A DNA stretch of 41,260 nt from an uncultured Gammaproteobacteria bacterium (GCA_964487495.1 CAZAPL010000008.1:1-41260), one strand, 5' to 3'; numbered from the stretch's first letter, positions 181 through 30,919 are shown. Notes: generated by a model not told the origin, from the sequence alone. Numbers and translations: made by a program.

Positions 181-215
181 ATTACACCTGTCAGGTGTAA
201 TAGGTTCACACCTAT
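181..215. repeat. REP-like palindromic element downstream of RAYT 1
   Basis: ATTACACCTG-T-CAGGTGTAAT palindrome (181-201) followed by ACACCTAT (208-215); inverted copy at 915-946. Confidence 0.85.
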
Positions 216-880
216 CGTACCTCCAATAACAAATGCTTAATTTTCTCTAACTTCTTTCCGTAATCAATCTGATCAAAAACAAATTTCCTATATTCTTGTG
301 GATTTTTGAAATGACTCAGGACCGGTTTTAAGTCTAATAAGGAAGACTCTCCTTTTAAATAATCAGGGAATGAGGAAAAAGGATAAGAAACAAGTTCCTT
401 TTCATTAATAAAAAAAGAAACGACCGGATTTATATGAATATAACGGGAAAGATGGATCAATTGTTCTTCTGTCTCGACTCTTACCGCTTTAAAAACACTC
501 TCAAACAAATCACCTTTCCTTTTATATTTTGTATTATAATAGCGAGTGAAACTGTTAGTTGCCCGACTTAAAAATAAAGAAATTCCATTATCTTCTTTCT
601 GTTGTAGGAGAAGATGAAAATGATTAGGCATAAAAACAAAGGCTAATATCTCTATTAATTTTTTATTTTTATTAAGTTGCTTAAATGCGCTATCTCTGGC
701 CTTTAAAGATAAATTTACAAAGTGGGAGAATCTTATCTGAGGATTTCTTTGATAAAAGAATAAAACATCAGTAAATCGTTGACAATCTCTTTTATTTACT
801 AAAATTGGCTGATTATTTATGGCTCGATTAAAAATATGATAGATTTCGCCAGTAGCTAAAATAGTTTTTCGGTAGGACAT
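212..880 (-). mobile_element. REP-associated tyrosine transposase (RAYT; Y1/HUH, IS200-like family)
   Basis: YHIFNR, MPNHFHLL (HUH), LSRYIHINPV (catalytic Tyr) and YPFSS motifs; flanked by palindromic repeats. Confidence 0.9.
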
Positions 881-887
881 ATATAGA

Positions 888-915
888 ATTATAGTTAAAA
901 AATAATCAAAGTCAA
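888..915 (-). promoter_or_regulatory. Sigma70 promoter of RAYT 1 (likely leaderless)
   Basis: TTGACT (915-910), 16 nt, TATAAT (893-888), then 7 nt to ATG 880. Confidence 0.6.
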
Positions 916-946
916 TAGGTGTAAATTAAAAACACCTGACAGGTGT
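915..946. repeat. REP-like element upstream of RAYT 1 (inverted copy of 184-215)
   Basis: ATAGGTGT-N9-ACACCTGACAGGTGT. Confidence 0.85.
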
Positions 947-954
947 AGGAAAGC

Positions 955-1956
955 ATGAATAAAAATAAAATTTTAATTATTTGTGGGCCGACGGCAACCG
1001 GAAAAACAAGTTTGGGAATTAGTTTGGCAAAAAAATTTGGCGGAGAAATAGTTTCTGCTGATTCTCGGCAGGTTTATAAAGGAATGGATATAGGCACTGG
1101 TAAAGACTTGCCTGTAAATTCCAAATTCCAAATTCCAAATTCCAAAATAAAAATTCCAAATTCCAAATTCCAAATTGGATATTATTTTTTGGATGGGATT
1201 CCAATTTGGCTTTATGATCTGGCAGATCCTGATTATCGCTTTAATGTTGCCGATTATATTAGTTGTTCTGAGGTGGTGATTAAAGATATTTGGCGGAGAA
1301 AAAAATTGCCAATTTTGGTAGGGGGGACAGGTTTTTATATAAAGGCTTTAATTGACGGAATTCAAACTTTAGGAATAGCGCCAGATTGGGAGTTAAGGGA
1401 GAAATTGAAAAAATTAGGAGTTGAAAAATTAAGGGAAATTTTGAAAGAAATTGACCCTGAACACTTAAAAAAGATGAATGAAAGTGATAGAAATAATCCA
1501 AGGAGGCTGATTAGGGCAATAGAGATAGCAAAAAAAATTCAAAATTCAAAATTCAAAGTTCAAAATTACAATCCAAAATTAAAAATTGGTAGTTTGCTAA
1601 TTATTGGCTTAAAAGCGCCCTATAGAGTTCTTTATGAAAGAATTGACAAGCGGGTTGAAGAAAGAATAAAGCAGGGAATTGAAGTAGAGATTAAAAGATT
1701 ACTTAAAAGGGGTTATAATTGGGAAAATTCTGCCTTGGGGACGACTTTAGGATATAAAGAATGGCAACCATATTTTGAAAATTTAGAATCAAAAGAAGAA
1801 ATAATTCAGAAATGGAAATACGAGGAGCATGCTTATGCCCGAAGGCAGATGGTTTGGTTTAGAAAAGATAAAAGAATTTATTGGTTTGATATAAGTAAAG
1901 TTAGCTATCAAAAAGAGATAGAAAAATTAATTGAAAAATGGTATATTAAGGATTAG
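955..1956 (+). CDS. miaA: tRNA (adenosine(37)-N6)-dimethylallyltransferase
   Basis: GPTATGKT P-loop, SADSRQVYKGMDIGTGK, VGGTGFY, YARRQMVWF. Confidence 0.96.
   Translation: MNKNKILIICGPTATGKTSLGISLAKKFGGEIVSADSRQVYKGMDIGTGKDLPVNSKFQIPNSKIKIPNSKFQIGYYFLDGIPIWLYDLADPDYRFNVADYISCSEVVIKDIWRRKKLPILVGGTGFYIKALIDGIQTLGIAPDWELREKLKKLGVEKLREILKEIDPEHLKKMNESDRNNPRRLIRAIEIAKKIQNSKFKVQNYNPKLKIGSLLIIGLKAPYRVLYERIDKRVEERIKQGIEVEIKRLLKRGYNWENSALGTTLGYKEWQPYFENLESKEEIIQKWKYEEHAYARRQMVWFRKDKRIYWFDISKVSYQKEIEKLIEKWYIKD
1116..1178 (+). repeat. Heptamer tandem repeat (AAATTCC)n inside miaA
   Basis: 9 units, 63 nt: 4x AAATTCC, AAAATAA, 3x AAATTCC, AAATTGG. Confidence 0.95.
1534..1588 (+). repeat. Degenerate heptamer tandem repeat (AAAATTC)n inside miaA
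   Basis: AAAATTC x3, AAAGTTC, AAAATTA, CAATCC, AAAATTA, AAAATTG; encodes KIQNSKFKVQNYNPKLKI. Confidence 0.9.
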
Positions 1957-1958
1957 TT

Positions 1959-2960
1959 ATGCCGAAAAAGATTGAAATTTCTCATCGTTCGATAATTTTT
2001 ACCGTTATTTTTTTAATTGGTCTTTGGTTTTTTTACCAAATTCGCCATATTATTATTGCTTTATTTGTTTCTTTTGTGTTTATGTCTGTTTTAAATCCCT
2101 TGGTTGATAAAATAGAAAAATGGCGTCTTCCTCGATGGCTGGCAATTCTTTTAGTTTTTTTAATAATTTTTGGAATAATTGGGGGGATTTTGGCGGTACT
2201 TATTCCTTCTTTAATTAATCAAAGCGCTATTTTTATTAATAGGGTTTCTAGTTTTTTTAGGCAGCTCAATATTGGAGTTCTTGAAGAGGCAGGAATAGAC
2301 AAAAATTTTGTTGTAAATCAGTTTACTAATCTTTCGGTAATCCCTTCAAATATCTTAAAAATAGCAATTGGATTTTTTACAAATTTAATCTCCCTCTTAA
2401 CCTTAATTGTTATTACTTTTTATCTTATGCTTGAAAGGAAAAATTTTGGTCGATACCTCAAGATACTTTTTGGAGAAAAAAAAGGCAAAGAATTCGAGAT
2501 TTTGATAGAAAAAATTGAAAAAAGGCTAGGAGGTTGGATTAGAGGAGAACTTAGTTTGATGGTTATTGTTGGGGTTTTGTCCTTTGCTGGTCTTCGTCTT
2601 TTAGGGATGGAGTTTGCCCTCCCATTGGCAATTTTTGCCGGTTTTTTAGAGATAGTTCCTAATATTGGTCCTATTGTTTCCGCGATTCCGGCAATGATTA
2701 GTGGTTTTGCAATCTCTCCTTTTATGGGAGTGGCGGTTGGGGCTTTATATTTTCTAATTCAGCAAATTGAAAATAATCTCATCGTTCCTCGGGTAATGCA
2801 CAAAATGGCCGGAGTGAATCCCTTAATAACTATTTTGTCATTGGCGATTGGTTTTAAGTTAGCGGGTGTTTTGGGGGCAATCTTGGCTATCCCCGTAGTT
2901 TTAATTATTTATGTTTTAATCTCTGATTTTTTTAGATCTGAAAAATTTAAAAATTTGTAA
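1959..2960 (+). CDS. AI-2E (PerM) family transporter
   Basis: Polytopic; LEIVPNIGP, QQIENNLIVPRVM, GVLGAILAIP motifs. Confidence 0.92.
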   Translation: MPKKIEISHRSIIFTVIFLIGLWFFYQIRHIIIALFVSFVFMSVLNPLVDKIEKWRLPRWLAILLVFLIIFGIIGGILAVLIPSLINQSAIFINRVSSFFRQLNIGVLEEAGIDKNFVVNQFTNLSVIPSNILKIAIGFFTNLISLLTLIVITFYLMLERKNFGRYLKILFGEKKGKEFEILIEKIEKRLGGWIRGELSLMVIVGVLSFAGLRLLGMEFALPLAIFAGFLEIVPNIGPIVSAIPAMISGFAISPFMGVAVGALYFLIQQIENNLIVPRVMHKMAGVNPLITILSLAIGFKLAGVLGAILAIPVVLIIYVLISDFFRSEKFKNL

Positions 2961-2993
2961 TTTCTTCTTTTTTTTGGTAAAATTTTTTTAAAT

Positions 2994-3367
2994 CCTTAAG
3001 AAAAAACCGGACAATCGGGACGTAAAAATTTTTATTTTTACGTTCAGGAAAGTCCAGACAGCAGAAAGCAGGGTGTCTTGGTAATACCAAGATGTTTCGC
3101 TTTTGATAAGCGAAATAAAGATAGGGCCACAGAGACGAGCCGGGTGGCGCCGGGTGAAACGGTCAAGCGACTGGGCGCTTACTTCGCAGGGTTTACCCCG
3201 AGCGAAGTAAGGGGCAACCCTCCCCGCTGCAATCTCCGATAGACCCGCTCCGCCGAATTGGCGGATAAGGTTGCTTTCCCGAGGGTCAAGGTTGAGAGCG
3301 TTAGATTGATGATTGTCGCCTCAATAAAAGAGGTACAGAATCTGGCTTATAGGTTTTTTCTTAAGGG
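2994..3367 (+). ncRNA. rnpB: RNase P RNA
   Basis: P1 CCTTAAGAAAAAACC (2994-3008) pairs with 3352-3366; P2 GACAATC/GATTGTC; CAGGAAAGTCCAGAC and ACAGAATCTGGCTTA (P4); GCCACAGAGA and GGTGAAACGG; TG-G-TAAAAT extended -10 at 2975-2983. Confidence 0.95.
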
Positions 3368-3379
3368 TTAACTTTGGCA

Positions 3380-4153
3380 ATGAGTTTTTTTGAAGTTTTA
3401 TTTTTAGCAATCGTTCAGGGATTGACTGAATTTCTGCCAATTTCTTCAAGTGGGCATTTAGTGATTTTCCAAAAAATTTTAGGTTTTTCTAAAGCGCCAG
3501 TTTTATTTGATGTCCTTCTTCACGTTGGAACTTTAGGAGCGATTATTTTTTATTTTCGGAAAGGATTAGAGCAGATTATATCCGGATTAACACAAAAAAA
3601 GAAAGAGTCGGTAAATACCCTTTGGTTAGTTTTTCTGGGAACAATTCCCGCGGCCTTAGTTGGTGGTTTATTTGAGAAACAGATAAGTTCGGCTTTTAAT
3701 TCTCCTCAAACAGTGGGATTGACTTTTTTAGCAACTGCAGGATTATTGTTTTCTACTAGGTTAATTAAGCATCAAAATAAATGCTTTAATCAATTAAAGT
3801 GGTTTGATGCTTTATTTATAGGAATATTTCAGGCAGCGGCAATTCTTCCGGGAATCTCACGTTCCGGTTCAACCATTTCTTCCGGACTTTGGCGAGGATT
3901 TTCTCAAGAGACTGCCTTTACTTTTTCTTTCTATTTGGCAATCCCGGCAATTTTTGGGGCTTTAATTTTGGAGGCAAGAGATCTTTTTTCTTATTCCCAA
4001 ACTGAATTAATTCAGGGAGTGGCAGGGATGATAATTGCCGGGATTGTTGGTTTTTTTGCTTTAAAAGTTTTAGAGAAAGTCCTTAAGTCTACCAAATTTT
4101 TCTGGTTTGGAATATATTGTTTAGTTTTGGGAATAATTATTCTTCTTATTTAG
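3380..4153 (+). CDS. uppP: Undecaprenyl-diphosphatase
   Basis: QGLTEFLPISSSGH and PGISRSGST motifs; ATG 3380 preferred over TTG 3374. Confidence 0.96.
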   Translation: MSFFEVLFLAIVQGLTEFLPISSSGHLVIFQKILGFSKAPVLFDVLLHVGTLGAIIFYFRKGLEQIISGLTQKKKESVNTLWLVFLGTIPAALVGGLFEKQISSAFNSPQTVGLTFLATAGLLFSTRLIKHQNKCFNQLKWFDALFIGIFQAAAILPGISRSGSTISSGLWRGFSQETAFTFSFYLAIPAIFGALILEARDLFSYSQTELIQGVAGMIIAGIVGFFALKVLEKVLKSTKFFWFGIYCLVLGIIILLI

Positions 4154-4155
4154 TT

Positions 4156-5322
4156 TTATTTTTTAACAAATAAGACGGCGTTGGGGATATTGCGGCCAGG
4201 ACCAACTTTGTAGCCTCCAAACCAAAGGGCAGTTGAGCCGCCATCGTCAAGATTTAAGGCATTTTCAAGACCAAGAGCATGAAGGGTAAGGGCAGATTCA
4301 GCCACGGTTGCATTGTGGACAACGCCTATATAAACCGTATTTCCTTTTGTGCCAATAAAACTTCTATTCCCTTTGCTGCCTTGTTTTGGGTCATCACCAC
4401 CGGTGAATTTTATTTGACTGTTTAAAAGAAGAAGAGGATGATTAGCCAAAACAGCATCAACGCTTGTGTCCCTGCCCCATTCCAAAGATTGACTAACGAA
4501 TCTTGCGGTATTTCCGTAGAAAATTACCGCGGGAACAGTACTATAGATGTTATTTTCAGAATTAATGTATTTTTTGTTTTTATTCATCAAAAGAGTATCA
4601 AAAGCATTTTTTTTGTTGCTACATGAAGGGTAAGTTGCCGGACAAAAATATGAGCCGTTTATTCCGGCAAAAGCATTGTTTCGTAAGACATAATCAGCCA
4701 AAGGCAAAACCGGGCAATCGTTGGCGCAGTCTGAATCCGAGGCCGTATCAACAATGACGCGCGTAGAATTTAAGTCAGCGGAGATAATATCAACCATAAA
4801 ATCGCCCATTTCAGTTTTAACCTTTTGACGTTGGTATCCTTCTTGGGGAGGATTATTTGTTTCGCTTACTTTGGGAGGGATTTTAAAAGAGGTAGCAATT
4901 TTTTCTCTTTCATTTTCGATTTTATTGGCAAGGTCGCTAAGTTTAGCTTCGGCCGAAGCGTAATTTTTTTGGGAAAGAAGATTTAAGATTTCAGCAAACA
5001 ATTCATCCAGTTTTTCTGTCTTTTGGTAAGTTTCTTTAAAACTTAATAATTTTTCATAAGTTTGGGCAGCCTGATTATAGACTTTTTGAATATTTTTTAT
5101 TTCTTCTTCAAGTTCTTTGTTTTTTAAATATTGGTCTTGGTTTTTTAAGATATTTAATTCTTCAGAAATTAAAACAAGTTTTTGCTCAAGGCCGACTTTT
5201 TCGTTTTTGAGAGTTTTGGTTTGTTGATAAAAAATAAAAAACACGGAGGCGGCTGAGATAATAAAAAAGGGGGCAATATAAAATAGAATTTTTTTAACCT
5301 GTGGGTAATTTATTTTTTTCAC
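4156..5322 (-). CDS. Phosphodiester glycosidase (NAGPA/DUF2233) family protein with N-terminal TM and coiled coil
   Basis: AGINGSYF, NRSFIG, ALNLDDGGST motifs. Confidence 0.85.
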   Translation of the reverse strand: MKKINYPQVKKILFYIAPFFIISAASVFFIFYQQTKTLKNEKVGLEQKLVLISEELNILKNQDQYLKNKELEEEIKNIQKVYNQAAQTYEKLLSFKETYQKTEKLDELFAEILNLLSQKNYASAEAKLSDLANKIENEREKIATSFKIPPKVSETNNPPQEGYQRQKVKTEMGDFMVDIISADLNSTRVIVDTASDSDCANDCPVLPLADYVLRNNAFAGINGSYFCPATYPSCSNKKNAFDTLLMNKNKKYINSENNIYSTVPAVIFYGNTARFVSQSLEWGRDTSVDAVLANHPLLLLNSQIKFTGGDDPKQGSKGNRSFIGTKGNTVYIGVVHNATVAESALTLHALGLENALNLDDGGSTALWFGGYKVGPGRNIPNAVLFVKK

Positions 5323-5364
5323 TATTTTCAGTTTATCATATAAAATATAGTTTAGTTAGTTTTT

Positions 5365-6276
5365 ATGAATTCTTTCTTTCATATTCCGGTTTTGCTTAAA
5401 GAAACAATTGAATTTTTAAATCCTTCACCGGGAGAAATTTTTGTTGATTGCACATTGGGTGGTGGAGGGCACGCCGAAAAAATTTTAGAAAAAATTGGCA
5501 AAAAGGGAAAACTTGTTGGTATTGATTGCGATCCGGAGGCGATTGAAGAAGGAAAGAGGAAACTTAAAAAATTTGGAAGTCAGGTGGTTTTTGTTAATGA
5601 TAATTTTGTTAATCTAAAAAATATTCTCCAAGAATTAGGGATTTTTCAAGTTGATGGGATTCTTTTTGATTTAGGAGTTTCTTCTTATCAACTGGAGACA
5701 CGCCAACGTGGTTTTAGTTTTGGCGAAAAAGATAGGGACGCTCTTTTGGATATGCGAATGAATCCAGCCCAAAATTTTTCTGCTTTTGATATCGTCAATT
5801 TTTATCCGGAGAAAAAATTAAGGGAATTGTTTTTTAAGTTAGGCGAGGAACCATTTGGAGGAAAAATTGCCAGAGAAATTGTAAAAGAAAGAGAGAAAAA
5901 GAAAATTAAAACTTGCGGAGAACTTTTGGATTTAATTCGTCGGGCTACTCCACCAGATTATCGCTTTTCAAGAAAAAGCCATTGGGCTTCCAAAATTTTT
6001 CGGGCTTTAAGAATGGAGGTTAATCAAGAATTGCCAAATTTAGAAAAAGTTTTGCCTCAAGCGCTTGAGGTCTTAAAAAACGGAGGAAGAATAGTAGTTA
6101 TTTCTTTTCATTCGCTTGAAGATAGAATTGTTAAACGTAAGTTTTTGGAGTGGCAAAAATTTGGTTTTGTTGAGATTTTAACTAAAAAACCAGTTTTAGC
6201 AACTTCCTTGGAAATTATGAAAAACCCACGGGCAGACAGCGCTAAATTAAGAGCGGTTAAAAAATTAGTTAAATAA
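5365..6276 (+). CDS. rsmH: 16S rRNA m4C1402 methyltransferase
   Basis: HIPVLL, DCTLGGGGH, DLGVSSYQL, LDMRM, ISFHSLEDRIVK, NPRADSAKLR. Confidence 0.97.
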   Translation: MNSFFHIPVLLKETIEFLNPSPGEIFVDCTLGGGGHAEKILEKIGKKGKLVGIDCDPEAIEEGKRKLKKFGSQVVFVNDNFVNLKNILQELGIFQVDGILFDLGVSSYQLETRQRGFSFGEKDRDALLDMRMNPAQNFSAFDIVNFYPEKKLRELFFKLGEEPFGGKIAREIVKEREKKKIKTCGELLDLIRRATPPDYRFSRKSHWASKIFRALRMEVNQELPNLEKVLPQALEVLKNGGRIVVISFHSLEDRIVKRKFLEWQKFGFVEILTKKPVLATSLEIMKNPRADSAKLRAVKKLVK

Positions 6277-6315
6277 GGGCTAGTTTTAAATTGAGTAGTT
6301 TTTTAAATTTTAGTT

Positions 6316-8292: not shown

Positions 8293-8323
8293 CTGAAGAA
8301 TTTTTTAACGGGCAGAGGGATAT

Positions 8324-9736: not shown

Positions 9737-9751
9737 TTTTTTATTTTTACT

Positions 9752-11242: not shown

Positions 11243-11276
11243 AATAGTATAATATAAGATATATAAGTATGGTGGC

Positions 11277-11305
11277 ATTTTAGCACCTTAGATATTTTTT
11301 GTCAA
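11277..11305 (-). promoter_or_regulatory. Near-consensus sigma70 promoter of the three-gene orphan operon
   Basis: TTGACA (11305-11300), 17 nt, TG-C-TAAAAT (11282-11277). Confidence 0.8.
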
Positions 11306-11424
11306 GTAAAAAAATCAATATCTTCTGACGTTTCGTAATCTTTCTTTTTAAGTATTTTTTTCTATAGGGTTTTAAAAGGGGTTTTGGTTGAAAATTTTTT
11401 TTAGATTGTGTCAGAATAAATTTA

Positions 11425-12957: not shown

Positions 12958-13004
12958 TTTAGCAAAACCCCTCCCGTAAAACTTGGGTGGGGGTTTTTGC
13001 TAAA
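12958..13004. terminator. Probable bidirectional intrinsic terminator
   Basis: TTTAGCAAAACCCCTCCC-loop-GGGTGGGGGTTTTTGCTAAA between convergent genes. Confidence 0.8.
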
Positions 13005-13714: not shown

Positions 13715-13717
13715 AAA

Positions 13718-18536: not shown

Positions 18537-18611
18537 GATTTTTATAAAAAATTTTGTCTGTTTATGTAGAATAGAATTGTCTTTAAACTGAGATAGAAAG
18601 GAGGTGATAAT

Positions 18612-18872
18612 GTGGATTTGCAGGTTCAGAAAAAAGACGGCAGGCTTGAGCCTTTTGATAGGGATAAAATAAAAAGCGGCCTTCTTAAATCAGGAGCTTC
18701 CAAGGAGGAAGCGGAAAAAATTGCTGCCGATGTTGAAGTCTGGGCCCAGAATGCAGCCCAAAATGGTATTGTTAGTACCTTTAGTCTTAGGAATAAAGTT
18801 CTTGAGATTTTAAAAGAAATTAATCCTACCGCCGCTAACGCTTTTGAATTTTACCGAAAGCCAAAACAGTAA
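18612..18872 (+). CDS. Stand-alone ATP-cone domain protein
   Basis: VQKKDGRLEPFDRDKI; strong SD GAAAGGAGGTGA before GTG. Confidence 0.88.
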   Translation: MDLQVQKKDGRLEPFDRDKIKSGLLKSGASKEEAEKIAADVEVWAQNAAQNGIVSTFSLRNKVLEILKEINPTAANAFEFYRKPKQ

Positions 18873-18931
18873 TTTTGTTAATTTTTTATTAAATATTAAT
18901 CTTTTTTGGTCTAAAAGAGAAAGAATTTTTC

Positions 18932-19741
18932 GTGGAAGAAAAGGTTAAAAAAATTTTGAGTTCTTATAAAATTAAATTGGACCCTTTTAAGGATCAGTTT
19001 TTCCTCATTGATCAAGAAATTATAAAAAAAATTGTCGAAGAGGCAAAAATTAGGCCAAATGAAAAAGTGGTTGAAATTGGTGCGGGTTTGGGTTTTATTA
19101 CTTGGGAAATAGCCAAAAGATCTAGAAATGTTTTAGCAATTGAAATAGATAGGAGATTTAAGCCAATTTTAAATAAACTTCCTTCTTGGGTAAAGGTTGT
19201 TTATGGAGACGCCTGGAAAATTTTAGGGGGACTTCATTATTCAAAATATAAGTTTGATAAACTAATTTCTAGTCTTCCTTACAGTCTTTGCGAGCCGATA
19301 ATGCATAAGTTTACCTATGGGGTTAAATTCAAAACGATTGTTTTTGTAATTCCCAAGAAATTCTTTTATAAAATTTTAAATCATCCTATCTTCTCTGCTT
19401 TTTATAAAATTGAGAAAGTTTTAGACGTTCCCAAAAAAGCATTTTATCCTATACCTAGGGTTAATTCGGTGGTTGCAAAAATTACTCCCTACAAAAATCC
19501 GCCTCTTTCTGCTGTTATTTGTCAATATCTTTATAAACATAGGCGATCTCTTACTAAAAATGCTTTGGTTGAGGCGTTAATTGAGGTTTCTCCAAAAATT
19601 TACCAAAGAAAAATTACAAAGAATCAGGCAAGGAAATTAGTTCAAGAATTGGGGATCGATCAGAAACTTCTTAAAGAAAGACCCATCGACAATCCTAGTA
19701 TTTATTTTGAAGTAATTAAGAAAATAAATACCGTTTCGTAA
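18932..19741 (+). CDS. rsmA: RsmA/KsgA/Erm family rRNA adenine dimethyltransferase (divergent)
   Basis: DQFFLID, VVEIGAGLG, AIEID, SSLPY, FYPIPRVNS. Confidence 0.75.
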   Translation: MEEKVKKILSSYKIKLDPFKDQFFLIDQEIIKKIVEEAKIRPNEKVVEIGAGLGFITWEIAKRSRNVLAIEIDRRFKPILNKLPSWVKVVYGDAWKILGGLHYSKYKFDKLISSLPYSLCEPIMHKFTYGVKFKTIVFVIPKKFFYKILNHPIFSAFYKIEKVLDVPKKAFYPIPRVNSVVAKITPYKNPPLSAVICQYLYKHRRSLTKNALVEALIEVSPKIYQRKITKNQARKLVQELGIDQKLLKERPIDNPSIYFEVIKKINTVS

Positions 19742-19783
19742 ATTCATTCCGATACCGTTTCGTTTTATATTTACGAAATGGTA
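19729..19783. repeat. REP-like repeat cluster upstream of RAYT 2
   Basis: TACCGTTTCGTAAATTCA (19729), TACCGTTTCGT (19753), inverted ATTTACGAAATGGTA (19769-19783). Confidence 0.85.
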
Positions 19784-19839
19784 AAATGCGTTATAAAGGT
19801 AGTATTAAATATGATTTTTGATGTGATATTATAGAATAA

Positions 19840-20484
19840 ATGGCATTAAGGAAAACATTTTTGGCTACAGGCGAAGTTTATCATGTTTTAAATCGCTCAT
19901 CTTATGGTTTTCCTATATTTAAGGGAAAAAGAGAGCGTGAATATTTTCTGGAGGCGATGGGATATTATATTCAAGCAAATCCCCCAACAAAATTTTCTCT
20001 TTATAAGATTAAGAAAGATATGTTTTCTGTTAGTTTAAAAGATAGATTGGTAACAATTATTAATTTTTGTATTATGCCGACTCATTTTCATTTTACCCTA
20101 AGACAAGATAAAGATGATGGGATTAAAAAATTTATTCAGAAATTGACTAGTAGTTTTGCTCATTACTTTGCTATAAAAAATCGAAGTAGTGGTCATGTTT
20201 TTGAAGGAAATTTCAAGGCAATCCGGGTAGAAAATGAGGAACAGTTGATCCATCTTTCTCGATATATTCATTTAAATCCCGTTTCTTCCTATCTTGTGGA
20301 AAATCCAGAGGACTATTTATATTCTTCTTATAGAGTTTATTTAGGGAAAGAAAAATCATTTATTGTAGACCCATCTTTAGTTCTTAGTAATTTTTCTTCT
20401 CCTTTGGAATACGAAAGGTTTGTTTTATCTCAGAAAGATTATCAGCGAGAAATAGAAAAAATAAAACATCTACTTCTAGAGTAG
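19840..20484 (+). mobile_element. REP-associated tyrosine transposase (RAYT), paralog 2
   Basis: YHVLNR, MPTHFHF (HUH), LSRYIHLNPV, YLYSSY; visibly homologous to 212..880. Confidence 0.9.
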
Positions 20485-20496
20485 AAATAGGCAAAT

Positions 20497-20538
20497 TACC
20501 GTTTCGTAAATTCAAACCGATACCGTCTCGTAAATTCA
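20497..20538. repeat. REP-like repeat cluster downstream of RAYT 2
   Basis: TACCGTTTCGTAAATTCA (20497) and TACCGTCTCGTAAATTCA (20521), 24-nt period. Confidence 0.85.
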
Positions 20539-21879: not shown

Positions 21880-21881
21880 CT

Positions 21882-21900
21882 TGGTATGATAATTATACCA
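21882..21900. promoter_or_regulatory. Overlapping divergent extended -10 promoters for cca and recJ
   Basis: + strand TG-G-TATGAT (21882-21890); - strand TG-G-TATAAT (21900-21892). Confidence 0.65.
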
Positions 21901-25020: not shown

Positions 25021-25051
25021 ATTTTTTATAATTATTTTTCTCTTTTTTGGG

Positions 25052-25300
25052 CTATTTTTGGTGTTTCCCAAGTTTTCCTTTTTGGTTTAGAAAATTTTCC
25101 GGTGAAGTTTTTTCTCTCAGAGAATTGCCTTGATCACCAAAAATTTCTTCACCGTATTTGTTAATTATTCTTATTGCTTCTTCAGGATTTAATTTTAATA
25201 TCTCTTCCCAAGCAGCCTGTTGGGCATTTGGTAGAATGCCAAAAGTATCTAGCATTTTTTGGTATCTTCCTAAAGCTTTCCAATATTCTGATTCTTTCAT
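25052..25300 (-). CDS. Hypothetical protein, 82 aa
   Basis: ATG-initiated ORF directly downstream of the attenuator-like leader. Confidence 0.65.
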   Translation of the reverse strand: MKESEYWKALGRYQKMLDTFGILPNAQQAAWEEILKLNPEEAIRIINKYGEEIFGDQGNSLREKTSPENFLNQKGKLGKHQK

Positions 25301-25310
25301 TATTCTAATA

Positions 25311-25340
25311 AATAAAAAACCTCCCTTTTTTGGGAGGTTT
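25311..25340 (-). terminator. Intrinsic terminator within a leader (attenuator)
   Basis: AAACCTCCC-AAAAAA-GGGAGGTTT followed by TTTATTT on the - strand. Confidence 0.8.
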
Positions 25341-25363
25341 GAGAAAGTTTTAAAAACTATTTT

Positions 25364-25450
25364 CTACTGCCATTTCCCCAAACCTCCCCTCTCCTTCTTT
25401 TTGAGGATAATAGAAAGAGAGATTTGGTTTATAAAAAGGGAGTTTTTCAT
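25364..25450 (-). CDS. Putative leader peptide, 28 aa (not in the ORF track)
   Basis: MKNSLFINQISLSIILKKKERGGLGKWQ*, between promoter and terminator; contains the antiterminator segment. Confidence 0.6.
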   Translation of the reverse strand: MKNSLFINQISLSIILKKKERGGLGKWQ

Positions 25451-25462
25451 TTAATTATAAAG

Positions 25463-25491
25463 ATTTTAATTAGTCATTTTTAGATTGTCAA
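25463..25491 (-). promoter_or_regulatory. Sigma70 promoter of the attenuated unit
   Basis: TTGACA (25491-25486), 17 nt, TAAAAT (25468-25463). Confidence 0.8.
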
Positions 25492-25521
25492 GATAAAGAA
25501 AAAAATGTAGAATATTAGATA

Positions 25522-26910
25522 ATGCAAAGAGTTTTAACTAGTCAGACTAAAGAAAAAATTGGAGAAAAAGTTAGGCTTTGTGGATGGGTAAATAATCTTC
25601 GGGATCACGGAAAGATAATTTTTATAGATTTACGAGACAAAGAGGGAATTATTCAATTAGTTGGAGATGAAAAATTGAAAAATTTGAGAATTTCCGACGT
25701 TTTGGAGATTGAGGGAGTGGTCAAGAAAAGACCAAAAAATTTAATTAACCCCAAAATTTTAACCGGAGAAATAGAAGTTGAAGTTAAGAACTTTAAAATT
25801 TTGGCAAAGTCAAAGGATTTGCCTTTCGATATTCAGGGAAGTGGAAGAGAAATCAATGAGGAATTACGCCTGCGGTATCGTTATTTAGATTTAAGGCGAC
25901 TAAGAATTTTTAGGAATTTGGAAATTCGTCATAAAACTATTAAATTTATTCGTGATTGGCTAGATGCTCATGGGTTTATTGAAATTGAAACTCCAATTTT
26001 AACAAAGGCTACTCCAGAAGGGGCAAGAGACTTTTTGGTTCCTTCAAGGCTTCAGCCAGGGAAATTTTATGCCTTGCCCCAATCTCCCCAGCAGTATAAA
26101 CAACTTTTAATGGTTGCTGGGTTTGAAAGATATTATCAGATAGCGCGTTGTTTTAGGGATGAAGACCCGCGGGCTGACCGGGCTTATGGGGAGTTTACTC
26201 AACTTGATCTTGAAATGTCTTTTACAACCCAAGAAGAAATTTTGTCTTTGATTGAAGAACTTTATAAATCTTTAATTAAAAAAGTTTTTCCTCAAAAAAA
26301 GCTTACTTTTTCTCATTTTCCTAGATTAGAATATGATGAGGTTATTAAAAAATATAAGACAGATAAGCCTGATTTAAGAAAAAACAAAAATGACCCCGAC
26401 GAGTTAGCATTTTGCTTTATAGTTAATTTTCCTTTATTTGAATGGAAGGAAAAAGAAAATCGTTGGGATTCAATGCATCACCCTTTTACTGCTCCTAAAG
26501 AAGAGTTTGTTCAAGACTTACTTAATGAAAGAAATATTGGTGGAATTAAATCTTATCAACATGATTTTGTTTTAAACGGTTTTGAAATAGGAGGGGGAAG
26601 TATTAGAATTTCTGATCCGGAAATTCAAGAAAAAGTTTTTAAAATTCTCGGCCATGAATCATCAGAAATTAAGAAAAAATTTGGGCATCTTTTGGAGGCT
26701 TTTAGTTATGGCGTCCCCCCTCATGGTGGAATTGCTCCCGGAATAGACCGTTTTTTAATGATTGTTTTAAATGAGCCTAATCTTCGGGAGGTAATTGCTT
26801 TTCCAATGACCGCCTCGGGACAAACAGCAGTTATGGATGCTCCTTCTGAAGTAGACTCTTCTCAGCTTAAAGAGTTAGGAATAGAAATTGTCTTTAATAA
26901 AGACAAATGA
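25522..26910 (+). CDS. aspS: Aspartate--tRNA ligase, bacterial type without GAD insertion, probably non-discriminating
   Basis: RDHGKIIFIDLRD, TPEGARDFLVPSR, ALPQSPQ, CFRDED, PPHGGIAPGIDR. Confidence 0.95.
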   Translation: MQRVLTSQTKEKIGEKVRLCGWVNNLRDHGKIIFIDLRDKEGIIQLVGDEKLKNLRISDVLEIEGVVKKRPKNLINPKILTGEIEVEVKNFKILAKSKDLPFDIQGSGREINEELRLRYRYLDLRRLRIFRNLEIRHKTIKFIRDWLDAHGFIEIETPILTKATPEGARDFLVPSRLQPGKFYALPQSPQQYKQLLMVAGFERYYQIARCFRDEDPRADRAYGEFTQLDLEMSFTTQEEILSLIEELYKSLIKKVFPQKKLTFSHFPRLEYDEVIKKYKTDKPDLRKNKNDPDELAFCFIVNFPLFEWKEKENRWDSMHHPFTAPKEEFVQDLLNERNIGGIKSYQHDFVLNGFEIGGGSIRISDPEIQEKVFKILGHESSEIKKKFGHLLEAFSYGVPPHGGIAPGIDRFLMIVLNEPNLREVIAFPMTASGQTAVMDAPSEVDSSQLKELGIEIVFNKDK

Positions 26911-27860
26911 AAGAAATTAGGAATTTTTTCTCTTTTTTGTGGGGGAAAAATTTTTTAAATGTTTTGGAGTTTTTATTAGTTTTTTTGTTTATTCTTTTTC
27001 TTCCGGGGTTAGATTATTATGAAAATCTGAATTCTTTTTGGCAGAAGCCTGAAGTTCTCGGTTTTCATTTTTCTATTCCCCCTCCTTTGCCAATCCCCAA
27101 AAATAAACTCGGAATTTTGCCTTTAGAATTTTCGGCTAAGGCAATTTTTTTGGTAGATTTACCTACATGGATGCCTATTTACCAAAAAAATCCTCATTTA
27201 AGAGTTCCTCCTGCTTCAACTGCTAAGATAATGACTGCTTTGGTATCGCTTGATTATTATCGCCTAGACGATGTTTTAACAGTTCCTAATATGGATTTTC
27301 AAGGGCAGATTATTAAACTTCGCGCAGGAGAAAAAATGACAGTAGAGAATCTTTTGCATGCTTTGCTTTTGGCTTCGGCTAATGATGCTGCCGAAACTTT
27401 GGCGGCAAATTATCCTGGGGGGAGAAAATCTTTTATAGAAAAGATGAATCAAAAAGCTAAAGAGTTAAATCTTTCGAATACTTATTTTACTAATCCTACT
27501 GGTTTAGATGAAGAAGGTCAGTATACTACCGCTTTTGATTTGGCTCTTCTGTCGCGGGCAGCAATTCAAAATGAAGTTTTTACTAAGATAGTTTCAAAAA
27601 AAGAATTTTTAATTAGCCTGGTTGATCAAAAGAAATTTTATTCATTGAGAAACATTAATATTCTATTAGATAAATTACCGGGAATTAAAGGAATTAAAAC
27701 GGGGTGGACAGTTTCCGCTGGAGAATGTTTAGTAAGTTTTTATAAAAAGGATGAAAGGGAGATAATTAGTGTTGTTTTGGGTAGTAAAGATAGATTTGGA
27801 GAAACAGAAAAGATTTTAAATTGGGTTTTTGAGAATTTTGAATGGAAAATTCCAGTTTAA
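26907..27860 (+). CDS. D-alanyl-D-alanine carboxypeptidase (peptidase S11)
   Basis: PASTAK (SxxK), SAND (SxN), NPTGL, KTG. Confidence 0.92.
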   Translation: MKEIRNFFSFLWGKNFLNVLEFLLVFLFILFLPGLDYYENLNSFWQKPEVLGFHFSIPPPLPIPKNKLGILPLEFSAKAIFLVDLPTWMPIYQKNPHLRVPPASTAKIMTALVSLDYYRLDDVLTVPNMDFQGQIIKLRAGEKMTVENLLHALLLASANDAAETLAANYPGGRKSFIEKMNQKAKELNLSNTYFTNPTGLDEEGQYTTAFDLALLSRAAIQNEVFTKIVSKKEFLISLVDQKKFYSLRNINILLDKLPGIKGIKTGWTVSAGECLVSFYKKDEREIISVVLGSKDRFGETEKILNWVFENFEWKIPV

Positions 27861-27866
27861 ATTTTT

Positions 27867-28919
27867 TTATTCTGTCCATTTAGGATCAATAGCGGGTACG
27901 TAGGCAAAAAAATCTCTGTCGCCTTCAAAAACAAAAATTGGCTGGAGAAAGTTTTGGGGTTTTGGAGAATCATAATAGGCCAGATAAACTTTTCTAATGG
28001 TAATTTTGCCTTCACTGTTATCTCCCAAATTGGCAATAAAACCCTTTCCCTCTTGGATTTCTTGCCAGGCTAAAGACGCAGATTTAAGGGGGTAGGTAGC
28101 AAAATTATCCCATTCTATTTTATTATAGTTATATTTTACCTCTACAATTCTTTTATTTCGATCTCTTGCTCCCGAAAACATAAATGAGACGATTCCTTCT
28201 TTTGGATTAGGAGGAAGAACTGGGAGATTATCCTTTTTTTCTCTAAAAAGAGCAACTTTGACAAAATCTGCCTCAGAAAGAGAAAGAGCTGGTTTTAGAT
28301 CGGGGGGTTGATATTTAAGATAGGAAATTTCTGCATTGCCATTTTTTAAATCTTCGCTTAAAAGGCCAATATTGTTTAGGAAACCTTTGGCCTCAGAAAT
28401 TGCTTGTTCACCAGAGGGTAATTTTTTTTCAAATAGAATTGATTGATCATTTTGAAAATCATATTTAAGATTAAAAGTTCCGTTTACGATATCAATATCT
28501 AAAATATATTCTGGAGTAGTTTGCGAAGAGAAGCGATAAATTGTTTCGGATAATGGTTTTGGCGAACTAGAAAAACCAATTTTTCTGGCCGTTTCTTTTG
28601 CTCTTTCTAAAGAAAGAAGAGAAACCGCAGGTTTAACGGAGACATAAACTTTGCCAATAGAATCAAGTTTGGGAATTGTCCCTTGGATTGTTTCTAATTT
28701 GAAAGAAAGAGAAGGTTTTTCTTCAATTTTGGGAAAGTCTATTTTAGGTAATTTGCCAAAAGAGGTTGTTGGGGGTGGTGGTGGCGGGGGATGGATTTTG
28801 CGGAGATAGGCGGTGGTGGCATTCCAGATAAAACGCAGAATTAAAAATCCCACAAAGAAAATTATTCCATATTTTATTCCTTTACGAGTATAATAAGCGG
28901 TTTCTGTAAGAGTCGCCAT
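27867..28919 (-). CDS. Hypothetical membrane-anchored protein
   Basis: 350 aa; N-terminal TM, poly-Pro, FGKLP, LAYYD...LQPIFVF C-terminus. Confidence 0.85.
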   Translation of the reverse strand: MATLTETAYYTRKGIKYGIIFFVGFLILRFIWNATTAYLRKIHPPPPPPPTTSFGKLPKIDFPKIEEKPSLSFKLETIQGTIPKLDSIGKVYVSVKPAVSLLSLERAKETARKIGFSSSPKPLSETIYRFSSQTTPEYILDIDIVNGTFNLKYDFQNDQSILFEKKLPSGEQAISEAKGFLNNIGLLSEDLKNGNAEISYLKYQPPDLKPALSLSEADFVKVALFREKKDNLPVLPPNPKEGIVSFMFSGARDRNKRIVEVKYNYNKIEWDNFATYPLKSASLAWQEIQEGKGFIANLGDNSEGKITIRKVYLAYYDSPKPQNFLQPIFVFEGDRDFFAYVPAIDPKWTE

Positions 28920-28964
28920 ACACTTTTGAGTATAGATTTATCTTATGCTAAAATCAAGGTAATT

Positions 28965-30380
28965 ATGAAAGAAATTCGTACCCGTTTTGCCCCTTCGCCT
29001 ACTGGTTTTTTGCATATTGGAGGGTTGCGAACCGCTCTTTATTCTTATGCTTTTGCCAAAAGTCAGGGGGGGAAGTTTATTTTAAGGATTGAAGACACAG
29101 ATATTAAAAGATACATAGAAGGAGCAAAAGAAAAAATCTGCGAAATTTTAAAAATATTTGGTTTAAATTGGGATGAAGGGCCAGAGGTTGGCGGGCCATA
29201 CGCTCCTTATATTCAGTCGGAGAGAGTAAAGGTTGGGATTTATAAAAAATATGCCGAGATTCTTCTTAATTCCGGTCGTGCTTATTATTGTTTTTGCTCT
29301 TTTCCTCCTGAGGAAATTTTAAAATCGAAAGATAAAAGAAGAGAAATAAAATTAAGAGATGATTGCCGTAATCTAAGCCCTAAGGAAATTAGAAGACTCC
29401 TTGAGAGAGGAGAAAAACCGGCAATCCGCTTAAGACTCCCCGAAGGCGAAAAGGTTTCTTATTTTGATTTTGTTTTAAAAAAAGAGATTTATTGGAAAAC
29501 TGATTTTGTTGATGAGGTAGTTCTTCTTAAGTCAGATGGATTTCCTACTTATCATTTAGCGGTAGTAGTTGATGATGCCGAGATGAAAATTTCTCATATT
29601 TTAAGAGGTCATGATTGGTTGCCAAGTACCCCTATCCATCTTTTGCTTTTTAAATATTTAAATTTCCCAGTTCCTCAAATTGGTCATTTAACTGATATTC
29701 TTGATCCGTCTGGAGGGAAGCTTTCTAAAAGAAAGGGGACAGTTGCGTGCGAAGAATTTTTAAGTCAAGGTTATTTACCGGAGGCGATTTTAAATTTTGT
29801 AATGCTTTTAGGTTGGGCACCAAAGGATAACAGAGAGATTTTTAGTTTGTCCGATTTTGTTGCTAATTTCCAAAAAGGTAATCTTCAAGTTTCAAATCCT
29901 GTTTTTAATCAAAAAAAATTGGATTGGTTTAATGGATTTTATATTAGAAATAAAAAAGACGACTGTCTACTTCAATTAATTAAACCATTTGCACCAAGAA
30001 ACGCCTCTCCTCGTTTAATTAATCAAACTATTCCTTTAATTAAAGAAAGGATTAAAAAACTTTCGGATTATTCTTCTCTAGCCGGATTTTTTTTTAAAGA
30101 ACCAAAGATTGACAAAAAATTATTTACTAAGGGGGCAAAAGAGCAATTATTACTGGCCCTTGAAGTTCTAGAAAAAAACAAAAATTGGGATAAAAAAAAC
30201 TTGGAAAAAGAACTCCAAAAATTGGTAAAAGAAAAAAGTTGGCAAGTTGGAGATTTTTTTATGAATTTTCGTATCGCTATTGCTGGCTCCAAAATCACTC
30301 CGCCAATCACAGACTCGATTGAGATTTTAGGGAAAGATAAAACCTTAAAACGACTTAAGGTAGCCGTTGCTTTATTATGA
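28965..30380 (+). CDS. gltX: Glutamate--tRNA ligase
   Basis: RTRFAPSPTGFLHIGG, LRIEDTD, DGFPTYH, KLSKR; ATG 28965 preferred over TTG 28926. Confidence 0.96.
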   Translation: MKEIRTRFAPSPTGFLHIGGLRTALYSYAFAKSQGGKFILRIEDTDIKRYIEGAKEKICEILKIFGLNWDEGPEVGGPYAPYIQSERVKVGIYKKYAEILLNSGRAYYCFCSFPPEEILKSKDKRREIKLRDDCRNLSPKEIRRLLERGEKPAIRLRLPEGEKVSYFDFVLKKEIYWKTDFVDEVVLLKSDGFPTYHLAVVVDDAEMKISHILRGHDWLPSTPIHLLLFKYLNFPVPQIGHLTDILDPSGGKLSKRKGTVACEEFLSQGYLPEAILNFVMLLGWAPKDNREIFSLSDFVANFQKGNLQVSNPVFNQKKLDWFNGFYIRNKKDDCLLQLIKPFAPRNASPRLINQTIPLIKERIKKLSDYSSLAGFFFKEPKIDKKLFTKGAKEQLLLALEVLEKNKNWDKKNLEKELQKLVKEKSWQVGDFFMNFRIAIAGSKITPPITDSIEILGKDKTLKRLKVAVALL

Positions 30381-30389
30381 GAAATTTTT

Positions 30390-30416
30390 ACTCCAATACT
30401 CCAGTGTAATGGAGTA
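30390..30416. repeat. Palindromic direct repeat, left of the TrpR-like gene
   Basis: ACTCCAATACTCCAGTGTAATGGAGTA. Confidence 0.85.
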
Positions 30417-30431
30417 GGATAGGGAGATTTT

Positions 30432-30908
30432 ATGACGAAGGTTTCTAGAATTCTTATCGATCCTAAAAGAATATCCCTTTTTATAAATTCTTTATGGAAT
30501 ACTTTGGCGCTTCTTGAGGATAAAAAAGAAGCGGAAGCATTTTTTAAGGATGTCTTTACTCGAACAGAAATTTTAATGTTTGCTAAGCGAATTCAAATTG
30601 CCAAGATGCTTCTTCTGGGATATGATTATCAAACAATAAGTTCTTTTGTTAGAGTGGGAAATACTACTATTTCCAAAGTTAGCGATTGGCTTAACCAAAG
30701 TAAAGGAGCAAAAAAGGTCATTCAACGCTTATTAGAGATAGAGAGGAAAGAAAAGGGTAATTTAATAATACCCTCCTCTCCTCGTGGGATTTTCTCGCTT
30801 GGGCCAAATTTATTTAAATTTGGAATCGAAACGGCAATAAAGCAGGTTAAGAAACGGAAAAAGAGGAAATCGGTAGAGAAATCGCTTCACTCCAATAATC
30901 CAGTGTAA
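30432..30908 (+). CDS. YerC/YecD family TrpR-related HTH protein
   Basis: FFKDVFTRTEILMFAKRIQIAKMLL.G.DYQTI....VGNTTISKV. Confidence 0.88.
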   Translation: MTKVSRILIDPKRISLFINSLWNTLALLEDKKEAEAFFKDVFTRTEILMFAKRIQIAKMLLLGYDYQTISSFVRVGNTTISKVSDWLNQSKGAKKVIQRLLEIERKEKGNLIIPSSPRGIFSLGPNLFKFGIETAIKQVKKRKKRKSVEKSLHSNNPV

Positions 30909-30919
30909 TGGATTATTGG
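30889..30919. repeat. Palindromic direct repeat, right of the TrpR-like gene
   Basis: ACTCCAATAATCCAGTGTAATGGATTA(TTGG); contains the gene's stop codon. Confidence 0.85.

Follow-up and report, generated by a model that had tools for sequence, protein, structure and literature searches.

The window analysed here, a stretch of 41,260 nucleotides from an uncultured Gammaproteobacteria bacterium, carries three single genes that each lie between copies of a different short repeat. Two of them encode RAYT-like Y1 (HUH) proteins (RAYT1 and RAYT2), and the third encodes a long protein of the YerC/HisR/TrpR family. This raises the question of whether the three loci share one design, as supposed by a first-pass annotation that saw in them a single class of minimal cassettes, either mobilised in trans or self-binding. 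The single class does not stand, as the RAYT-like and TrpR-like cases differ in protein, repeat geometry and likely function. Most likely, the bracketed look reflects two unrelated systems: RAYT-like genes with cognate repeats, and TrpR-like genes with private palindromes. We hold with moderate confidence the whole account, which combines RAYT/REP-type genes with autoregulated TrpR-like repressors and their operators.

Repeat brackets in the window and in the genome

The features of the three loci are the following.

183-216, no strand: left REP-like inverted repeat of RAYT1, holding the RAYT1 stop codon (212-214)
184-198: hairpin ACACCTGTCAGGTGT of the left RAYT1 repeat
208-215: outer motif of the left RAYT1 repeat, the reverse complement of ATAGGTGT
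212-880, minus strand: RAYT-like Y1 (HUH) gene 1, 222 aa, with HFHL at residue 87 and YIHINP at residue 147
915-947, no strand: right inverted repeat of RAYT1, 8 nt short of the miaA start (955), with ATAGGTGT at 915-922 and the hairpin ACACCTGACAGGTGT at 932-946
19730-19782, plus strand: family 2 copy before RAYT2, made up of two units in direct orientation and one inverted unit
19739-19741: stop codon of the rsmA-like gene, within the first unit of this copy
19766-19782: the third, inverted unit, able to pair with unit 2 as a hairpin
19840-20484, plus strand: RAYT-like Y1 (HUH) gene 2, 214 aa, with HFHF at residue 82 and YIHLNP at residue 142
20498-20538, plus strand: family 2 copy after RAYT2, in the same orientation as the upstream copy
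20536-20538: stop codon of the convergent cca gene, the last three bases of this copy
30390-30416, plus strand: upstream private palindrome, stem TACTCCA / TGGAGTA, loop GTGTAA, with a direct half-site ACTCCA on the 5' side
30432-30908, plus strand: long YerC/HisR/TrpR-family gene, 158 aa, one of six paralogues in the genome
30889-30915, plus strand: downstream palindrome copy, stem AATAATCCA / TGGATTATT, coding for the last residues of the TrpR-like gene
30906-30908: TAA stop codon of the TrpR-like gene, in the loop of the downstream palindrome
30999-31072, plus strand: tRNA-Gln(CTG), the next gene, about 80 nt after the downstream palindrome

These coordinates bear out the earlier observation of repeats on both sides of all three genes, and four stop codons (RAYT1, the rsmA-like gene, cca and the TrpR-like gene) do lie inside repeat units. 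The bracket of RAYT1 consists of inverted copies of ATAGGTGT-N9-ACACCTGACAGGTGT (183-216 and 915-947). That of RAYT2 consists of direct copies of ACCGTTTCGTAAATTCAwwCCGATACCGTyTCGT (19730-19763 and 20498-20531), and that of the TrpR-like gene of direct copies of ACTCCAATAmTCCAGTGTAATGGAkTA, with two differences between the copies that preserve stem complementarity. None of the families recurs elsewhere in the window, as had been stated; the whole genome holds 2 copies of family 1, 6 copies of family 2 (C8 twice, C10, C11 and C27 twice) and 3 copies of the family 3 core, the third at C29:34176. All three genes are indeed situated between housekeeping genes. At the miaA, rsmA-cca and gltX-tRNA-Gln loci, which had been singled out for comparison, the relatives searched carry either different cargo or no gene of this kind, and no RAYT was found in them at miaA or rsmA-cca.

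The flanks of the 563 ORF-called genes of the source genome (617 kb) were scanned over 120 nt, ungapped, with a score of +1/-2. Direct repeats had their 99th percentile at 16.8 and inverted repeats at 14.4; the genes of the window, with scores of 16, 26 and 16, were all among the top 10 of 563. Eight of these 10 genes were Y1/RAYT-like (three of the four in the genome) or TrpR-like (five of the six), so that the bracket recurs in the genome and is strongly enriched at these two families. Based on these ranks and percentiles, the brackets are not due to chance. At the relatives' loci, a score of 15 was reached by one of about 76 neighbouring ORFs, compared with seven TrpR-like ORFs (106 ORFs listed).

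RAYT-like genes and their repeats

Both RAYT-like proteins match the Pfam family Y1_Tnp (PF01797; cut-off 23), with 34.2 bits for RAYT1 and 31.6 bits for RAYT2. RAYT/REP (REPIN) systems were reportedly described by Nunvar in 2010, by Bertels and Rainey in 2011 and by Ton-Hoang in 2012. The likeness to them lies in a single Y1/HUH gene with the HUH and Tyr motifs between copies of its own repeat, in the inverted hairpins that form the RAYT1 repeats, and in a different repeat family for each RAYT. Of the four RAYT-like genes of the genome, three have their own repeats at either end, and the fourth has them at one end and within it. In contrast to classical REP families, which count tens to hundreds of copies, only 2-6 copies per family are observed here (2, 6, 4 and 4 repeat sites for the four genes). 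The RAYT2 repeats also differ in being tandem direct units, not simple hairpins, in direct rather than inverted orientation, and family 2 repeats additionally bracket an unrelated 342-aa gene (C27:6195-7223). Furthermore, the two window RAYTs score 54.0 and 55.5 bits against the NCBIfam RAYT model NF047646, below its cut-off of 80. Judged by their sequences, the Y1/HUH genes of the window can be regarded as RAYT-like and as a case of the established RAYT/REP arrangement, here in a genome of very small size.

TrpR-like genes and their private palindromes

The gene at 30432-30908 scores 48 bits with Pfam PF01371 (Trp_repressor; cut-off 27), and all six paralogues are above this cut-off. It also exceeds the cut-off of TIGR02531 (YerC/YecD; 46.9 vs 42.2), the C31 and C33 paralogues being just under it (41.2 and 40.7). 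The PDB relatives found by sequence are 3frw, 3g1c and 3kor. The structural model of the C31 paralogue has a mean pLDDT of 81, with values above 90 for residues 10-100, and its residues 10-105, approximately, gave target TM-scores of 0.78-0.86 to 3frw, 3kor and 3g1c and of 0.65-0.72 to E. coli TrpR in Foldseek. Beyond the TrpR fold, only two low-confidence helices were modelled. The C31 paralogue is thus predicted to adopt a TrpR-like helical fold with a helix-turn-helix.

According to PMC9413887, YerC is the TrpR-family repressor HisR, the sites of which are 20-bp palindromes, and the known HisR/TrpR members have fewer than 100 aa, are mostly single-copy and act on 20-bp sites at amino-acid genes. 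The proteins studied here share the fold and the family, and have palindromic sites, which they are predicted to bind, at the starts of their own or target genes. An unflanked clade of 118-aa proteins (G001, G002 and G010) has CCCACTTTAA..CTAAAGTGGG before its own start, which fits the HisR consensus TTTA-N6-TAAA given in that paper. In contrast, the proteins with brackets are longer (127-162 aa), with an extra C-terminal part, are present in up to seven copies in genomes of less than 1.2 Mb, and have a private site per paralogue (repeats of 16-36 bp) with copies both before and after the gene. His or trp genes were not seen among the neighbours of the palindrome sites; the products encoded beside these sites are secreted or membrane proteins, glycosyltransferases, DUF2304, ComEA-like and tsaB-like proteins.

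The TrpR-like gene of the window belongs to a group of long YerC/HisR/TrpR-family members (about 130-160 aa) that has expanded throughout the class. The bracket is present in five of the six TrpR-like paralogues of the source genome. Across the class, 74 long YerC/HisR/TrpR-family genes from 33 genomes were compared, those with a score of at least 16 being taken as bracketed. A near-identical private repeat of 16-36 nt, mostly a palindrome, was found before the start and after the stop of 36 of them, nearly all encoding 127-162 aa, and many repeat pairs are 100% identical over 23-33 nt. One side of the tree (58 rows) holds 34 of these 36 genes. The similarity of the palindromes is correlated with protein identity (Mantel r = 0.50, reached in 0 of 2000 permutations), a signal that co-inheritance of gene and flank would also give. 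In the sequences compared, the palindromes track the protein tree and co-diverge with the proteins.

With regard to promoters, the C24 paralogue has a TTGACA-17-TATAAT site with 12 of 12 matches, the -10 element of which lies within the upstream palindrome. Promoter-like sites with at least 10 of 12 matches overlap the palindrome in 8 of 36 upstream copies vs 2 of 36 downstream copies; no consensus-like promoter was found at the TrpR-like gene of the window or at the C31 locus. In the window, 15 nt separate the end of the upstream palindrome from the ATG, with the ribosome-binding site AGGGAG in between. In 18 of the 36 cases, an ORF with 70 aa or more starts in the same direction between -8 and +45 nt from the downstream copy, and 12 of the 36 downstream copies are kept with no same-strand gene or tRNA within 100 nt. 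A site before the tsaB-like gene and a site inside a FAD oxidase gene are common to the source genome and G001.

Based on these observations, the TrpR-like genes most likely encode autoregulated repressors with putative operators and are not mobile gene cassettes; binding, repression and an effector are what we infer for these proteins. Each paralogue would bind its own private palindrome as a dimer. The copy at, or within about 20 nt of, its own start would overlap the -10 region of a promoter giving a short-leader or leaderless mRNA, so that the bound protein would shut off its own gene. The second copy, directly after the stop codon, is in half to two-thirds of cases also the site that fronts the next co-directional gene or tRNA, the likely target, and a few further copies lie elsewhere in the genome. 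In about one third of cases, where nothing follows the downstream copy, it may act as a roadblock or terminator, or form a loop with the upstream site. Self-binding, one of the two modes first suggested, is the one that best fits the TrpR/HisR fold, the co-divergence and the promoter overlap.

The downstream copy could instead serve the repressor gene itself in general, by a tetramer-bridged loop of about 420-580 bp that shuts the gene or by a roadblock that ends transcription, a reading that is possible but not probable. It agrees with the 12 downstream copies that have no such neighbour and are still 85-100% identical to the upstream copy, with the lack of intrinsic-terminator-like sites at the three loci scanned, and with the C-terminal extension of the long clade, which the unflanked 118-aa clade does not have. 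However, 18 of the 36 downstream copies adjoin the start of the next gene, as the upstream copy does, and for those a shared operator suffices. The centre-to-centre spacing that a loop would have to bridge also varies, from 423 to 583 bp.

Palindrome copies at new places

The autoregulated-repressor account does not explain the copying of ready-made palindromes into coding genes. In G001, trmD contains a perfect 28/28 palindrome in frame, read as CLNDLNHFNK, and the source genome and G002 lack exactly those 10 aa. Among the 28 orthologues scored (30 aligned, the loop being unlocated in 2), a strong palindrome is present in this loop only in G001. In the source genome, a variable loop of a GT1 gene contains a 30/30 copy that the orthologues of G001 and G002 lack, and a PMT_2 gene contains a C8-type core within a stretch that exceeds its G002 counterpart by 10 aa. 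The trmD and GT1 cases are new copies at sites that have none in relatives. Two spacers of G001 contain two different palindromes only 3-4 nt apart. Sites of the same family are far more alike than usual operators, the likeness extending to asymmetric positions and non-palindromic tails (four sites of one G001 family match at 28/28 and three at 27/28), which indicates copying rather than independent selection. In addition, the palindromes of orthologous TrpR-like loci differ between genomes, and are identical upstream and downstream within each.

All of these observations are consistent with palindromes that are small self-propagating elements, similar to REPs or Rickettsia palindromic elements, are copied by some machinery and have the TrpR-like protein as their cognate binder. 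The protein would then help or tame the element, or be a regulator by which a spreading site was recruited, and the bracket would result from copies landing beside the gene or being homogenised with it. We consider this unlikely. The families counted have very few copies (2-8 per genome), there is no linked nuclease or transposase, and the proteins consist of the TrpR fold and two low-confidence helices. The RAYT beside trmD in G001 has its own, different REPs; the site in the FAD gene is old, within a conserved peptide and without an insert; and several sites are found in two genomes immediately ahead of the same gene, as in a regulon.

Rickettsia palindromic elements are small palindromic repeats of about 100-150 nt that insert in frame into genes. 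The palindromes described here resemble them where a ready-made copy sits in frame within a conserved gene and adds 10 residues to a tolerant loop, but are only 28-30 nt long, with 2-8 copies, mostly at gene starts, and each family is tied to one DNA-binding paralogue. It is doubtful that they are elements of 28-30 nt that multiply by copy-and-paste, have one cognate TrpR-family paralogue each, are homogenised within the genome and can land in new promoters or, in frame, in essential genes such as trmD. If they were, pairs of regulator and site would spread ready-made promoter/operator modules and thereby rewire a minimal genome, with no linked transposase needed.

That the whole unit of repeat, TrpR-like gene and repeat is a mobile or excisable cassette, moved in trans or looped out via its direct repeats, is highly improbable, although in many loci the gene leaves just 0-3 nt of the interval between the repeats unoccupied, paralogues occur in lineage-specific bursts (three in G021), and the gltX-tRNA-Gln spacer holds unrelated cargo in G001, G002, G017, G018 and G022. 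This cargo is never the same TrpR-like unit; in G017, the same tRNA-Gln is preceded at about 60 nt by a solo palindrome that belongs to another TrpR-type family. No recombinase or transposase linked to the unit was found in the flanks, nor any pair of empty and filled sites for the same TrpR-like gene. No two loci have near-identical cassettes, branch lengths being at least 0.17 in the clearest recent paralogue pairs, and in the source genome a solo copy resembles the flanking copies as closely as these resemble one another. Of the five bracketed TrpR-like loci there, three have syntenic counterparts in other genera or families, namely C31 (on both sides in G001, G018 and G017, on one side in G022), C27 (in G018) and C17 (in G002). 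The proposed mobilisation in trans is not supported for the TrpR-like genes. Since the palindromes do reach new places, some process in trans may act on the repeats themselves rather than on the genes.

Repeat brackets in the window and the genome

The genome comprises 616,953 bases in 33 contigs, with a G+C content of about 35% and an estimated completeness of 96%, and the window is the complete contig C8. Close homologues of one of its proteins are assigned by their sources to the Patescibacteria group, Candidatus Gottesmanbacteria, Shapirobacteria, and Levybacteria, which belong to the class Microgenomatia of the candidate phyla radiation. Three genes of the window, listed here with the tRNA that follows the third, are bracketed, i.e., a near-identical private repeat, mostly a palindrome, is found both before the start and after the stop of the gene.

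212-880, minus strand: RAYT1 (Pfam Y1_Tnp)
19840-20484, plus strand: RAYT2 (Pfam Y1_Tnp)
30432-30908, plus strand: TrpR-like gene (Pfam Trp_repressor)
from 30999: tRNA-Gln, after the TrpR-like gene

According to Pfam, the neighbours of these genes are miaA, an rsmA-type methyltransferase gene, cca, and gltX. RAYT1 is bracketed by two copies of ATAGGTGT-N9-ACACCTGACAGGTGT in inverted orientation. The bracket of RAYT2 is a direct repeat of an approximately 34-nt unit built from two sub-repeats of 13-17 nt, and a third sub-repeat of this family is located, inverted, upstream of the gene. In the case of the TrpR-like gene, a 27-nt unit able to form a hairpin is repeated in direct orientation on the two sides; its copies differ at two positions, and both differences preserve stem pairing. 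All four stop codons that the first-pass annotation had placed inside repeats are indeed within repeat units, and no extra copies of the three repeat families are present in the window. Its observation of three bracketed genes is thus confirmed, and it extends beyond the window. The miaA gene exhibits a run of 8-nt tandem repeats at 1120-1180 (AAATTCCA and variants).

In the genome, 594 ORF genes were called, and 563 of them were scored by the best ungapped match between their 120-nt flanks. The 99th percentile is 16.8 for direct repeats and 14.4 for inverted repeats. The ten best genes comprise five of the six TrpR-like genes, three of the four Y1 genes (Pfam counts six Trp_repressor and four Y1_Tnp genes in the genome), C27:6195-7223, and C5:698-1486. 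Based on these ten genes, the recurring architecture proposed at first pass is real and specific to the Y1 and TrpR-like families. This flank scan replaced an earlier genome-wide scan of 13-mer repeats, which was uninformative because chance repeats swamp an AT-rich genome. The gene at C27:6195-7223 (minus strand, 342 aa), which has no match in Pfam or NCBIfam, shows a direct-orientation bracket of the RAYT2 repeat family (locus L082, C27:6181-7351). The gene at C5:698-1486, ranked eighth, is flanked on both sides by the 16-nt direct repeat AATTATAACACAAAAT, with no mismatch between the copies, and a sortase-like TCWPPG motif is visible by eye in its 262-aa protein.

The TrpR-like family and its putative operators

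Genes matching PF01371 are present in 32 of the 41 genomes of the same class, including this one, with one to seven genes per genome; here, the family represents about 1% of the ORF-called genes (6/594). We fetched 74 of these genes with 1.5 kb on each side and scored their flanks. A flank score of at least 16 is observed for 36 of them, whereas among approximately 76 neighbouring ORFs, taken from 30 of the loci as controls, only one reached a score of 15. Apart from two of 100 and 176 aa, the proteins encoded by the flanked genes are 127-162 aa long, and in many cases the two copies are identical across 23-33 nt. The distance from the end of the upstream copy to the start codon is usually 0-20 nt, as is that from the stop to the beginning of the downstream copy. 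On the phylogenetic tree, 34 of the 36 flanked genes fall on one side of 58 rows, and none belongs to a 13-row clade of proteins of about 118 aa, which includes the sixth, unflanked paralogue of this genome. Among 121 genomes sampled across the phylum, the long type was found almost exclusively in this class, with only 11 genomes outside it matching at 1e-18, mostly over a partial profile. Literature searches found nothing in print on the TrpR-like family in this radiation.

The long TrpR-like proteins match YerC/YecD (TIGR02531), with scores near the cut-off, and sequence matches include three structures of 'TrpR-like' proteins from structural genomics, all unpublished. A structural model predicted from 34 family members is confident at residues 10-100. 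Its target TM-score against these structures is 0.78-0.86, with Escherichia coli TrpR the next best. The model also predicts two additional helices at the C-terminus, with low confidence. Bacillus YerC is described as HisR, a TrpR-family repressor of 20-bp palindromes with the consensus cacTTTAnnnnnnTAAAgtg, and the HisR/YerC proteins as shorter than 100 aa and mostly single-copy (PMC9413887). In the unflanked 118-aa clade, CCCACTTTAA..CTAAAGTGGG, which is consistent with the HisR consensus, is located just 5' of the gene's own start in the relatives G001, G002, and G010. Since this motif precedes the genes of the clade, the palindromes beside TrpR-like genes have the look of putative cognate operators, at least in the 118-aa clade. 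In addition, palindrome similarity correlates with protein identity (Mantel r = 0.50, reached by none of 2000 permutations; 36 pairs), a correlation to which co-inheritance alone would add.

With regard to the upstream copy, the paralogue on contig C24 exhibits a perfect TTGACA-17-TATAAT promoter, with its -10 box within the palindrome. Promoter-like sites of at least 10/12 overlap the upstream copy in 8/36 cases versus the downstream copy in 2/36, and their geometry is constant, the -10 box being inside the palindrome and the -35 box just outside. At the window locus and the C31 locus, no promoter-like site was found at the palindromes, and a terminator scan of three loci found no terminator-like site. 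In three paralogues of this genome, only 0-3 nt separate the end of the palindrome from the ATG, which leaves no space for a ribosome-binding site and would be consistent with short-leader or leaderless mRNAs. The sixth, unflanked paralogue is likewise preceded, 5 nt 5' of its start, by a unique palindrome of 37 nt. A strict hairpin score of at least 10 is found upstream of 12/36 flanked genes, 8/38 unflanked genes, and 10/571 controls, a scoring that is poorly tuned to imperfect palindromes.

The bracketed TrpR-like gene is best read as a putative repressor gene with its operators, a variant of the TrpR/HisR kind. Most simply, the repressor would be autoregulated, and its own site would also serve the next gene and a few more. 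In half of the brackets (18/36), an ORF of at least 70 aa on the same strand starts between -8 and +45 nt from the downstream copy. A gene or tRNA is within 100 nt of this copy in about 24/36, and a convergent or distant neighbour is found in about 12/36. Use by the next gene could account for the downstream copy in half to two-thirds of the brackets; about a third have no such neighbour. In the orthologue group of the C31 locus, the next gene in four relatives encodes a secreted protein with an N-terminal QVVINEF...WVELYN motif, which we take to resemble a lamin-tail domain; the next gene at this locus in our genome encodes a secreted protein of a different type. Extra copies in the genome precede a tsaB-like gene, a DUF2304 gene, and a PMT-type glycosyltransferase gene, and others are inside a GT1 gene, a PMT_2 gene, and an FAD amine-oxidase gene. 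G001 has eight sites of the same palindrome family, four of them 28/28, including those before the tsaB-like gene and inside the FAD gene. The family of locus L055 in G021 has five sites, and that of L070 in G028 has two, both flanking.

Regulators are very scarce in the bacteria of this radiation, and to our knowledge almost nothing is known about their gene control. A family whose private sites can be read on both sides of the gene offers ready-made candidate regulator-operator pairs and candidate regulons, which would include genes for surface proteins and glycosyltransferases as well as ComEA-like and tsaB-like genes. The diverged pairs of paralogue and site also form a natural data set on DNA reading by TrpR-fold proteins.

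Inheritance of the genes and proposed copying of the palindromes

The first-pass annotation had proposed a broader class of minimal cassettes, mobilised in trans or self-binding. This interpretation is half right: the conserved bracket around a DNA-binding gene with no nuclease stands, but not its grouping with the RAYTs in one class. Mobile cassettes are disfavoured by synteny. The surroundings of the C31 locus are shared on both sides with G001, G018, and G017, and on one side with G022; synteny is also seen for the C27 locus with G018 and for the C17 locus with G002. Because of this synteny, most TrpR-type brackets appear to be old and vertically inherited. No linked recombinase was found at the TrpR-like brackets, nor were near-identical cassette pairs. 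The TrpR-like genes themselves are mostly not mobile.

Unlike the syntenic brackets, the gltX-tRNA-Gln spacer contains unrelated cargo in five relatives and is a small cargo hot spot. In the relatives searched, the comparison of loci suggested at first pass gave other cargo at gltX-tRNA-Gln and rsmA-cca and no RAYT at miaA. In G022, the spacer (L071) contains a 118-aa ORF with CxxC...CANCH motifs, which by eye looks like an HNH endonuclease from its Cys/His motifs; other relatives exhibit a GNAT-like ORF, a coiled-coil ORF, or two 116-aa ORFs at this spot. In G017, a palindrome belonging to another TrpR-type family stands alone about 60 nt 5' of the same tRNA-Gln. Among the matches listed for 28900-32600 in three DNA runs, which covered contigs only, one contig of an approximately 96%-alike strain runs from gltX through the TrpR-like gene to the tRNA, and none of these matches shows a joint removing the cassette, which carries no weight either way.

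Some features of the palindromes are difficult to reconcile with simple operators. Within a genome, the copies hardly differ, even at asymmetric positions and in non-palindromic tails, and orthologous loci in different genomes carry differing palindromes. In trmD of G001, a perfect palindrome copy in frame adds 10 residues, which are not present in this genome and in G002; among 28 scored orthologues (30 aligned, with the loop not located in two), only that of G001 has a strong palindrome in this loop. The GT1 and PMT_2 sites lie within stretches whose length differs from that of close relatives. Palindromes of two different TrpR-type families also occur 3-4 nt apart, within a single intergenic spacer, at each of L149 and L150 of G001. 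The near-identity of the copies and the trmD, GT1, and PMT_2 sites thus suggest that ready-made palindromes are copied to new places by some process, and this is the strange part that remains. If the sites truly spread by copying, they would provide a compact bacterial example of regulatory rewiring via mobile binding sites.

The FAD amine-oxidase site was ruled out as an insertion, as it lies within a peptide conserved in relatives. No enzyme was found linked to the palindrome copies apart from a neighbouring RAYT in G001; at this sole adjacency, a link between TrpR-type palindromes and RAYTs was ruled out, as the REPs of that RAYT differ. The TrmD loop, which follows a conserved ESFS motif, varies from 0 to about 35 residues across the class (30 genomes, L157-L186).

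RAYT-like genes

The RAYT part is the known RAYT/REP design with unusually few repeats; it is of lesser importance and represents this design at its smallest copy number. All four Y1 proteins of the genome exhibit the HUH motif and the YIH(L/I)NP tyrosine motif, with scores under the cut-off of the NCBIfam RAYT model. No two of the Y1 genes share a repeat family, and the four families have 2, 6, 4, and 4 genomic sites. No RAYT was found upstream of miaA in the five relatives searched. The rsmA-cca comparison concerns one same-family relative, G001, in which rsmA and cca are neighbours; its gap (L137) contains a 393-aa ORF where our genome has RAYT2. By eye, this ORF resembles an integrase-type transposase in its C-terminal part. 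The RAYT sites are spots where foreign DNA arrives and leaves. For the fourth RAYT, no copies of its palindrome, GAGGTGCCACCTG, were found downstream of the gene; the palindrome occurs twice within its own coding region and twice just upstream (C17:31546-31575, 32044-32073).
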